A DNA stretch of 41,882 bases from an uncultured Clostridia bacterium (GTDB lineage: Bacteria; Bacillota; Clostridia; TANB77; CAG-508). Both the position numbers and the translations under genes were made by a program. Position 1 is the stretch's first letter. Each line of letters begins with the position of its first letter. This document shows, piece after piece, positions 41,354 to 41,882 of the stretch. A model generated the notes under the pieces. It was given only the letters and a program-made list of their open reading frames with translations, was not told the DNA's origin and made no database searches. The DNA lies in contig CAKPPL010000001.1 in assembly GCA_934177555.1 (NCBI GenBank), forward strand, positions 1-41,882, in the 5' to 3' direction.

Positions 41354-41464
41354 TGGGCGAACCCCATAGTTGTTGGCATTGTTGTAGTTGTTGTTGTTGA
41401 AGTTGCCGTTCGCATTCACATTCCACACGTTGTTGTTGCTCGTGCTATTAGAAGACCCCAACCA
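41354..41464 (-). repeat. DGR template repeat (TR)
   Basis: On the minus strand it reads tgg ttg ggg tct tct AAT agc ACg agc AAC AAC AAC gtg tgg AAT gtg AAT gcg AAC ggc AAC ttc AAC AAC AAC AAC tAC AAC AAT gcc AAC AAC tat ggg gtt cgc cca. It has 16 AAY codons, is not inside an ORF, and is 111 nt long. It matches 41645-41755 except at adenines. Confidence 0.9.
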
Positions 41465-41466
41465 CA

Positions 41467-41644
41467 GACTCTAGAACAAACTAAAGATATTCTCTGTATT
41501 ACCCTAATACCTATTAGATTAATTTCTTTCGGAGAGCCCTCTCCCTCAGAAATTAATCTTGCAGGAGCAGTTTTTTCCAAAAACTTGCTCCTAGCTATGA
41601 GGCTTTCAGCCTCTTTTGATTTATGATAAAGTGAATTCTATAAC
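41467..41644 (-). other. Structured spacer between VR and TR (three hairpins); putative 5' part of the DGR RNA and/or target-site recognition structure
   Basis: Hairpins at 41599-41613 (gaggct-GAA-agcctc on the minus strand, 8 nt after the target stop), 41563-41592 (13-bp bulged stem) and 41516-41559 (12-bp outer stem agattaatttct/agaaattaatct with an inner GC-rich stem). Confidence 0.55.
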
Positions 41645-41882
41645 TGGGCGAACCCCATAGAGGCCGGCAGCGCTGGAGTAGTCGCTGTCGAAGGAGCCGC
41701 GCGCACTCACACTCCACACGAAGATGCTGCTCGCGCTATAAGAAGACCCCAACCAATAACTTGTTTCAAATATCCATGGATAATTTGTTTTATTTGTATA
41801 TGGTATTATTTCTTCATATGCTGCTAATCTTACTTTACTTACTGCATTTCCTAATTTTGTTTTATAATTTTCTACATATTGA
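41621..41882 (-). CDS. 3' end of the DGR target (variable) protein with a lectin-like C-terminus; the 5' part lies beyond the right edge
   Basis: The minus-strand frame is open from 41881 to the TAA at 41623..41621. It reads ..KVRLAAYEEIIPYTNKTNYPWIFETSYWLGSSYSASSIFVWSVSARGSFDSDYSSAAGLYGVRPVIEFTLS*. Confidence 0.85.
   Translation of the reverse strand, partial: QYVENYKTKLGNAVSKVRLAAYEEIIPYTNKTNYPWIFETSYWLGSSYSASSIFVWSVSARGSFDSDYSSAAGLYGVRPVIEFTLS
41645..41755 (-). repeat. DGR variable repeat (VR) inside the target gene
   Basis: 111 nt aligned without gaps to TR (offset 291), with 87 identities. All 24 mismatches lie at TR adenines. All 16 AAY codons plus ACG and TAC are altered. Confidence 0.9.

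Follow-up and report, generated by a model that had tools for sequence, protein, structure and literature searches.

In the diversity-generating retroelement (DGR) of phage BPP-1 (mtd-avd-TR-brt), a variable repeat (VR) at the 3' end of the gene for a C-type-lectin-fold ligand-binding domain differs from its template repeat (TR) specifically at template adenines. Both repeats share a GC-rich boundary and a hairpin follows the VR. The TR of BPP-1 (2887-3020) is directly adjacent to avd (bbp7), with brt 145 nt away from it, and the target is a phage tail fibre. The C-type-lectin fold is the class usually diversified by DGRs, and Avd-TR-brt supplied from a plasmid was found to be functional in trans (Wu et al. 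2018, PMC5758913). The window, by which the whole 41.9-kb stretch of DNA analyzed here is meant (contig CAKPPL010000001.1), stems from an uncultured, low-GC (27%), spore-forming gut Clostridia bacterium and carries near one end a TR/VR pair that resembles BPP-1 in its adenine-specific differences, in the position of the VR, in the GC-rich boundary and in the hairpin. Unlike in BPP-1, no avd or reverse transcriptase (RT) gene was found in the 41 kb to one side of the pair or in the 9 kb to its other side, and the target is a cellular pilin-like protein with the TR directly 3' of its own target gene. It is strongly supported that the pair is genuine and of DGR origin, and that adenine-specific retrohoming shaped the locus. 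Its architecture is RT-unlinked, without a canonical cassette, and this copy is probably inactive.

Coordinates are those of the + strand, and TR, VR and target gene read on the minus strand. Positions 38500-41882 were read, a repeat finder was run and the pair was compared base by base. Its features are the following.

41621 to 41882, minus strand: 3' end of the target gene, open at the window end, with its stop codon at 41621-41623.
41645 to 41755, minus strand: VR, 37 codons, ending 7 codons before the target stop, with 24 differences from the TR, all at TR adenines.
41354 to 41464, minus strand: TR, intergenic, with 38 adenines and, read in the frame of the VR, 16 AAY codons; its identity among 11 assemblies is 100%.
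41645 to 41656, minus strand: GC-rich 3' boundary of the VR, GGGGTTCGCCCA, resembling an initiation of mutagenic homing (IMH) site; the identical 12-mer closes the TR at 41354-41365.

TR and VR align without gaps over 111 nt (291 nt from start to start) with 87 identities and 24 differences, each of which falls on a + strand T of the TR copy, that is, on a minus-strand A. Given 38 adenines among the 111 template positions, the probability that all 24 differences fall on adenine is 7e-15 (hypergeometric) or 7e-12 (binomial). On the minus strand A gave way to G in 12 cases, to T in 7 and to C in 5. Read in the VR frame, the 16 AAY codons of the TR are changed without exception (to Y,S,I,F,S,S,R,S,D,S,D,Y,S,A,G,L), as are two further codons (ACG>GCG and TAC>TCC), and the VR translates as WLGSSYSASSIFVWSVSARGSFDSDYSSAAGLYGVRP. 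In the putatively lectin-like C-terminal domain of the target 21 adenine-containing codons are rewritten. Homology ends immediately beyond the shared GGGGTTCGCCCA, to which an IMH-like role may be assigned by analogy with BPP-1. The TR contains a TTG-started open reading frame (ORF) of 41 codons and no gene. A diagonal scan of the whole window for imperfect repeats with A/T-biased mismatches returned this pair as its sole result, and the pair was found in 10 further independent metagenome assemblies, which rules out an assembly artefact.

The initial annotation, made from the sequence without database searches, had already described this pair, and on recounting its figures proved exact: two ungapped copies of 111 nt with 87 identities, 24 of 24 differences at template adenines, 16 AAY codons all replaced together with one ACG and one TAC, and about 38 template adenines, which are precisely 38. 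Its reading of the first copy as non-coding, of the second as the in-frame 3' end of a gene with the peptide WLGSSYSASSIFVWSVSARGSFDSDYSSAAGLYGVRP, and of a GC-rich end after which homology stops was likewise confirmed. The assignment to a DGR template and variable pair rests on the fact that no other known process alters the adenines of only one copy to all three other bases. Ordinary divergence had been called very unlikely, and changes limited to the adenines of one copy, to three bases and at P = 7e-15, bear this out. An ordinary diverged duplication, or gene conversion between paralogs, in which composition or selection produced the adenine bias without any reverse transcription, is thus extremely improbable, although many paralogs exist, mosaic alleles and possible chimeras were seen, and the VRs of paralogs show AT-biased drift (G>A, C>T). 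Such drift in a genome of 27% GC would reduce the GC content of the VR and not lift it to 62% (TR 47%, window 27%). Moreover, the A-rich copy is the non-coding and invariant one, and the same asymmetry occurs independently in L002, a strain of the same species, and in L016, a locus of another species (both described below).

Strain comparison supports retrohoming in the recent past. The exact MreB protein encoded near the TR was present on 21 public contigs, all of them human-gut metagenome assemblies, ten of which (L001-L010) were compared together with the window in an eleven-sequence comparison. Over 12.5 kb their identity to the window is 99.2-99.5%. No TR difference separates the 11 sequences. 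Nine of them also have one and the same VR, and L002 and L003 have other alleles; three VR alleles occur among strains that are at most 0.8% divergent. L002 has 99.2% identity to the window across these 12.5 kb, and relative to the TR its VR is changed at 14 A and at 1 T. Between the VRs of the window and L002, 24 of the 111 positions differ, 23 of them TR adenines, against ~0.55% in the rest of the 12.5 kb. Strains of ~0.5% divergence thus carry VR alleles that differ at TR adenines in 23 of 24 cases, which indicates that homing happened in the recent history of the species. The initial annotation had proposed polymorphism as a check, expecting an invariant TR and VR changes only at TR-adenine sites. 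The invariant TR in 11 sequences and the 23 of 24 TR adenines between window and L002 agree with this and support genuine adenine-specific rewriting; within the window's own lineage the VR is monomorphic (nine assemblies), and L003 also has non-adenine changes and a 3-nt insertion. Eight of the ten assemblies (L003-L010) break within the target gene just upstream of the VR, likely because many paralogs have near-identical 5' and middle parts. Two further contigs, L037 and L025, look like chimeric joins at stretches common to paralogs.

The window ends 127 nt upstream of the VR and the target gene continues off it. L002 has an intact copy of the gene, which codes for 395 aa and contains the VR within its last 44 codons. 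The N-terminus of this protein (MENIRKKQKG followed by ITLIALVVTIVVLLILAGTSIAML) resembles a prepilin (class III) signal, with the prepilin-like motif KGITLIALVVTIVVLLILAG. The match to Pfam PF07963 N_methyl (E = 8.7e-4, 19.2 bits) is below the cut-off of 21.2, and the usual Glu5 is absent from the motif KG/ITLIALVV. One target homolog carries the Joint Genome Institute (JGI) name archaellin-like, and a Peptidase_A24 (prepilin peptidase) gene is located three genes away from one paralog. Judged from its sequence, the target appears to be a type IV pilin-like surface protein, one of many dispersed paralogs. The family comprises more than 5,400 homologs, nearly all from gut metagenomes, and close members have the hypervariable stretch WLGSS...VW.V...G.F........YGVRP. 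A confident AlphaFold (AF2) model of the C-terminal 182 aa (pLDDT 87) had as top PDB match the C-terminal domain of Legionella Lcl (8q4e, DUF1566 family), a modest match (probability 0.95, E 0.02, TM 0.50). Further PDB matches, also with modest scores, were C-type lectins (CD23, SP-A) and FGE-like folds (EgtB, SenA). Pfam matches of the target to DUF6273 and Lcl_C were under the gathering score, a PDB sequence profile search with the target gave only a chance antibody match, and a structure search with the full-length target was uninformative. The model suggests that the C-terminal domain is lectin-like (Lcl_C/DUF1566-like). When the VR of the window was aligned with five related alleles or paralogs, the variable columns were those where the TR codon has A at position 1 or 2, with two exceptions; A-free codons were invariant save for those two single substitutions.

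The RT which such a pair calls for was not found nearby. No Pfam match to an RT, to Avd (PF05635) or to another accessory protein was obtained among 30 window ORFs, including every ORF of at least 100 aa, and a six-frame scan of the window for the YxDD motif revealed no RT. Only 127 nt of the window lie upstream of the VR, so that the other side of the locus is not visible in it, and a canonical DGR cassette with its RT just past the window end, the implicit model of the initial annotation, would fit the window itself. It is nevertheless highly improbable. L001 and L002 (99.2-99.5% identical) run 8-9 kb past the target gene without RT or Avd, and the genes encountered there encode MecA, peptidase M23, CoatF, UvrD/PcrA, a Zip transporter, a PDDEXK protein and RF-1. 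On the other side of the TR lie radC, mreBCD and the genes for PBP2 and MinC, and no RT is present in 41 kb, which together with 9 kb on the target side makes ~50 kb free of RT. Extension past 41882, which the initial annotation had advised, yielded the full target gene in L002 (395 aa) and, in L001 and L002, no RT or Avd in 8-9 kb. Its designation of the locus as a DGR therefore stands as far as a TR/VR pair shaped by adenine-specific mutagenic retrohoming is concerned (adenine-only differences, a seemingly lectin-like target, an invariant TR and a variable VR), but no RT or Avd is linked to it.

The search was widened to 441 kb (the window and related loci), in which a scan for SQ...[YF]xDD in ORFs of at least 150 aa returned nothing. 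As positive controls, the same scan picks up Brt in BPP-1, and a stricter form (ORFs of at least 200 aa) picks up RTs in 15 of 28 phage DGR loci. No RT was found in the neighbourhoods of the paralogs P0001, P0019, P0012, P0013, P0089, P0005, P0010, P0011 and P0002. Paralogous targets of the same organisms stand singly in housekeeping surroundings (EF-P/FtsY, PNPase, ABC-F, a second MreB, HrcA/GrpE/DnaK), with neither RT nor TR within 3-10 kb, depending on flank and contig end.

The TR itself was found to be part of a structured region. On the minus strand the order is target gene, VR, 7 codons and stop, hairpins H1, H2 and H3, TR, a 29-nt flank, a hairpin with a run of eight T (T8), the radC promoter, radC, mreB, mreC, mreD, the PBP2 gene and minC. 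The elements around the TR are the following.

41599 to 41613, minus strand: hairpin H1, GAGGCTGAAAGCCTC, 7 nt past the stop codon and 31 nt past the IMH-like end, without a U-tract on the gene strand.
41564 to 41591, minus strand: hairpin H2, GGAGCAAGTTTTTGGAAAAAACTGCTCC, its sequence kept in the modules of other species.
41516 to 41560, minus strand: hairpin H3, a long interrupted stem, with the same shape and position and a different sequence in other species.
41325 to 41353, minus strand: conserved TR 3' flank, ATTTTCTATAAAACTTAGGATTGTGTAAT, adjoining every TR copy of the family found in other species and metagenomes.
41257 to 41321, minus strand: long hairpin followed by T8, a likely intrinsic terminator of the TR transcript, upstream of the radC promoter.

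H1 is a candidate for the DGR target-site hairpin, or for a weak terminator, and has a counterpart at the same place in L016, L024, L027 and L028. A 401-nt stretch of this region folds much more strongly than its shuffles (z = -6.4). The spacer between VR and TR shows the same three hairpins in the window and in L016, with z = -5.8 and -5.7, respectively. An Rfam scan gave no match in the TR/VR region; the sole Rfam match in the window is a single tRNA gene at 17924-17996 on the + strand.

The arrangement of VR, spacer, TR and flank recurs in other organisms, each time without an RT. Relatives of the target C-terminal domain were found in species-representative genomes at eight loci, in metagenome-assembled genomes (MAGs) of uncultured Clostridium, Clostridia and Erysipelotrichaceae from gut and rumen, and none of these eight GTDB loci contained an RT. 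At one of them, L016, the VR is followed by a TR ~300 nt downstream, with differences at A sites in 8 of 8 cases (ungapped core) or 18 of 20 (gapped). L016 and the window have an H2 that is near identical base for base, an H3 of the same shape and other sequence, and TTTTCT.TAAAACTTAGGATTGTGTAAT after the TR. A metagenome search with the TR 3' flank retrieved six more loci, again with no RT, and the TR-encoded peptide used as protein query retrieved only a single 640-nt contig (L036), another VR-spacer-TR module. Such modules stand after a pilin-like gene in L024, L026, L027, L028 and L036, with an RT in none; L021 and L023 have a whole or partial TR, and no RT. Differences are A-biased in the modules of L016/L026, L024, L027, L028 and L036 (18/20, 20/29, 19/32). 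Altogether, no RT was found beside the module in L001-L010 or in ~10 assemblies from other species or loci. Between window and L016, the TR end (60 nt) together with the flank is 87% identical, as against 49% protein identity of the target domains. Such better conservation of a non-coding element than of the coding sequence beside it points to a function or to horizontal spread in recent times.

Mobile elements were searched as well. The full degenerate TR/VR pattern had no matches in viral and genome contig collections, nor did its 3' half in the metagenome contig collection. The TR with its flank gave no blastn match in phages and plasmids, and the target domain none in viral contigs. The core GGCAACTTCAACAACAACAAC occurs in 28 viral contigs, which were considered as a cognate system; these phage DGRs are canonical, differ from the module in 3' boundary and flank, and are hence not cognate. 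Several gut-phage canonical DGRs from IMG/VR (L043-L048, L050, L054, L057 and L065, GC 34-36%) have the TR core AATGGCAACTTCAACAACAACAAC in common with the window TR. Their 3' boundary is different and their RT (FVDD motif) begins right after the TR. One contig, L025, appeared to join a canonical avd-TR cassette to the TR of the module. Over its first 375 nt, as far as a 21-nt core present in both, it matches a phage contig at 100% identity; it is therefore a probable assembly chimera and was discounted. A 58-aa 'Avd-like' fragment on it has no homologs and no match to the Avd profile. P0002, which has the VR of L002 at another locus, was not counted as independent evidence, as its contig ends in the spacer and was treated as a possible chimera.

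Variants of the arrangement were also seen. In L021 (327-710, MAG UMGS1689) the pilin-like gene is frameshifted and ends in the unmutated template (…NNNVWNVKTDGNFNNNNYNNDNNRGVRP), with the TR 3' flank directly after it, an arrangement due either to a deletion by VR-TR recombination or to assembly collapse of both repeats. In L035 (4197-6146, ERZ27287241) the MecA-linked target P0011 is followed by a terminator of its own and a UPF0236-family transposase, and TR and radC are absent, which shows that some strains or species lack the TR module at this locus. The paralog P0019 (L012, 11250-11494, from the same sample as L002) has 497 aa and a pilin-like N-terminal half, and its GC-rich, A-poor end is unlike that of the target. 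By its sequence this end looks like the VR of a second template family; within 10 kb of it in L012 neither TR nor RT was found. A long-read contig of 1,565,345 bp from a related organism (L029, ERZ27273536:contig_1159) encodes at least eight pilin-like paralogs (P0089, P0091, P0095, P0100, P0101, P0109, P0110 and P0119), some with FGE-sulfatase-type C-termini; one that was inspected stands alone beside hrcA-grpE-dnaK.

Several observations indicate that the copy in the window has decayed. Compared to L002 (5028-7220), L001 (7640-8800) misses 1,175 bp. In L002 this segment carries the promoter region and the first 57 target codons, together with a Fic/DOC-like fragment and a spare N-terminal fragment of a pilin. 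Furthermore, L001 and L007 have in common a frameshift in the target between GDNKF and SLKAD. The 5' part of the window's own target lies outside view, but the last 127 nt before the VR match L001, which places the window in the L001 lineage. In this lineage the target is probably a pseudogene, 5'-truncated and frameshifted, and the VR allele of the window would then sit in a pseudogene. The same VR is present in nine assemblies from at least three cohorts that are ~0.5% apart from each other. Most likely the VR of the window is frozen, and this copy is a recent fossil of retrohoming and no active site. Among observations that would speak against a DGR, the initial annotation had listed a completely monomorphic VR without an RT and differences at non-adenine positions in related genomes. 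About half of this was encountered: the VR is monomorphic in nine assemblies, relatives show some non-adenine differences and codon indels, and the target is truncated and frameshifted in the window lineage.

The main alternative reading is that all pairs are pure relics, fossils of a former canonical DGR which lost its RT and Avd, so that no strain is diversifying now. The lack of an RT beside every module copy found (L001-L010 and ~10 other assemblies) and in 441 kb would be explained in this way, as would the target pseudogene with a VR identical in nine assemblies from at least three cohorts, and the non-adenine VR/TR differences and codon indels in L003, L024, L027 and L011. Such a general loss is considered less likely, as homing was recent (VR alleles differing at 24 of 111 sites, 23 of them TR adenines, between strains of ~0.5% divergence), intact full-length targets are common, and TR, 3' flank and H2 are far better conserved across species than the adjacent coding sequence.

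The locus is probably best explained as the target-plus-TR module of a DGR-type system with its RT at an unlinked locus, of which this copy was recently inactivated. In this explanation the TR would be transcribed, probably as a 3' extension of the target mRNA, through the three hairpins and the TR to the T8 terminator at 41257-41321. A DGR reverse transcriptase from an unlinked locus would then make cDNA, misincorporating opposite adenines, and this cDNA would replace the VR, with the invariant GGGGTTCGCCCA as 3' boundary and H1 located 31 nt beyond it. The adenine-only pattern, the invariance of the TR, the adenine-restricted differences between strains and the recurring RT-less module were observed directly.

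A number of findings weigh against this explanation. As no RT was detected in the window and the related loci searched, the trans-acting enzyme is postulated, not observed. Co-transcription of the TR with the target is likewise inferred, from the lack of a U-tract after H1 and from the failure to find a promoter-like site for the TR or between VR and TR. The VR of L003 differs from the TR at many A sites, but also at ~10 non-A sites and by a 3-nt insertion, and the VRs of other species show some non-A differences and codon indels relative to their own TR. Such changes in L003 and other species are the pattern expected from long inactivity. Paralog VRs of the same organism show mostly A-site differences with a few shared non-A ones (TTG>TTA, AGC>AGT, GGC>GGT), which hint at a second TR variant or at AT-biased drift. 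Finally, some alleles are shared between loci, which may reflect recombination or assembly chimeras.

As a tentative and rather doubtful generalization, gut Clostridia and Erysipelotrichaceae relatives could possess self-contained RT-less modules (target, 3' untranslated region with hairpins, own TR and flank) that are used by an unlinked RT, either a chromosomal DGR RT without a template of its own or the RT of a mobile element, with template and enzyme being inherited or exchanged separately. If the module is indeed served in trans, gut Firmicutes have more diversified genes than estimated so far, DGR targets come to include type IV pilin-like adhesins, and the rule that an RT recognises the RNA of its own cassette needs revisiting. 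The largest DGR survey starts from the RT and accepts only repeats no more than ~1 kb away (Roux et al. 2021), so that a TR located far from the RT, beside its target, is missed; if the reading as an RT-less module is true, such systems escape any DGR finder that is anchored on the RT. Should the modules be relics, they constitute a dated record of DGR loss, and an A-biased TR/VR pair alone is no proof of an active system.

Elsewhere the window contains a cluster of surface proteins. Two divergent paralogous proteins of 758 and 845 aa, encoded at 7520-9796 (-) and 9953-12490 (+), have a Listeria-Bacteroides repeat at the same position in each. They adjoin a 1,121-aa protein with choline-binding repeats (4122-7487), and further on a sortase (18054-18794) and a BspA-type leucine-rich repeat protein (18848-20362) are encoded.

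Among known systems, the DGRs of Bacteroides type V pilus adhesins (bioRxiv 10.1101/2024.11.15.621889) also diversify the adhesive tip of a pilus-type surface protein in human gut bacteria. They concern type V pili of Bacteroidota and are described as DGRs with an RT, whereas the target here is a Clostridia type IV pilin-like protein (class III signal peptide) without a linked RT. The modular type IV pilins of monoderms, such as Streptococcus sanguinis PilB (PMC8179133), are similar in that a C-terminal functional module is grafted on a pilin N-terminal module. They are not known to be hypervariable or DGR-targeted, and the homology seen here does not extend beyond the N-terminal motif, whose Pfam match is sub-threshold. 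Full-text literature searches on DGRs together with pilins returned no paper that ties DGRs to type IV pilins. Loci that have no RT of their own and yet show diversification were described in Thiohalocapsa PB-PSB1 as incomplete DGR loci (Dore et al. 2024, PMC10907252), for which 'an RT and/or TR encoded elsewhere', acting in trans, was proposed. These belong to another phylum, their targets are conflict-system sensors and intact RT loci exist in the same genome, whereas no RT was seen here and the module is conserved across species with structured flanks. The chromosomal DGRs with remote targets of Treponema denticola, Legionella and others (Wu et al. 2018, PMC5758913) are comparable in being cellular and not phage-borne, and in having one template family with dispersed paralogous targets far from the RT. 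In those systems, however, the TR is located beside the RT and only the VRs are remote, whereas here the TR, too, is far from any RT and is carried along with one target in a conserved module.

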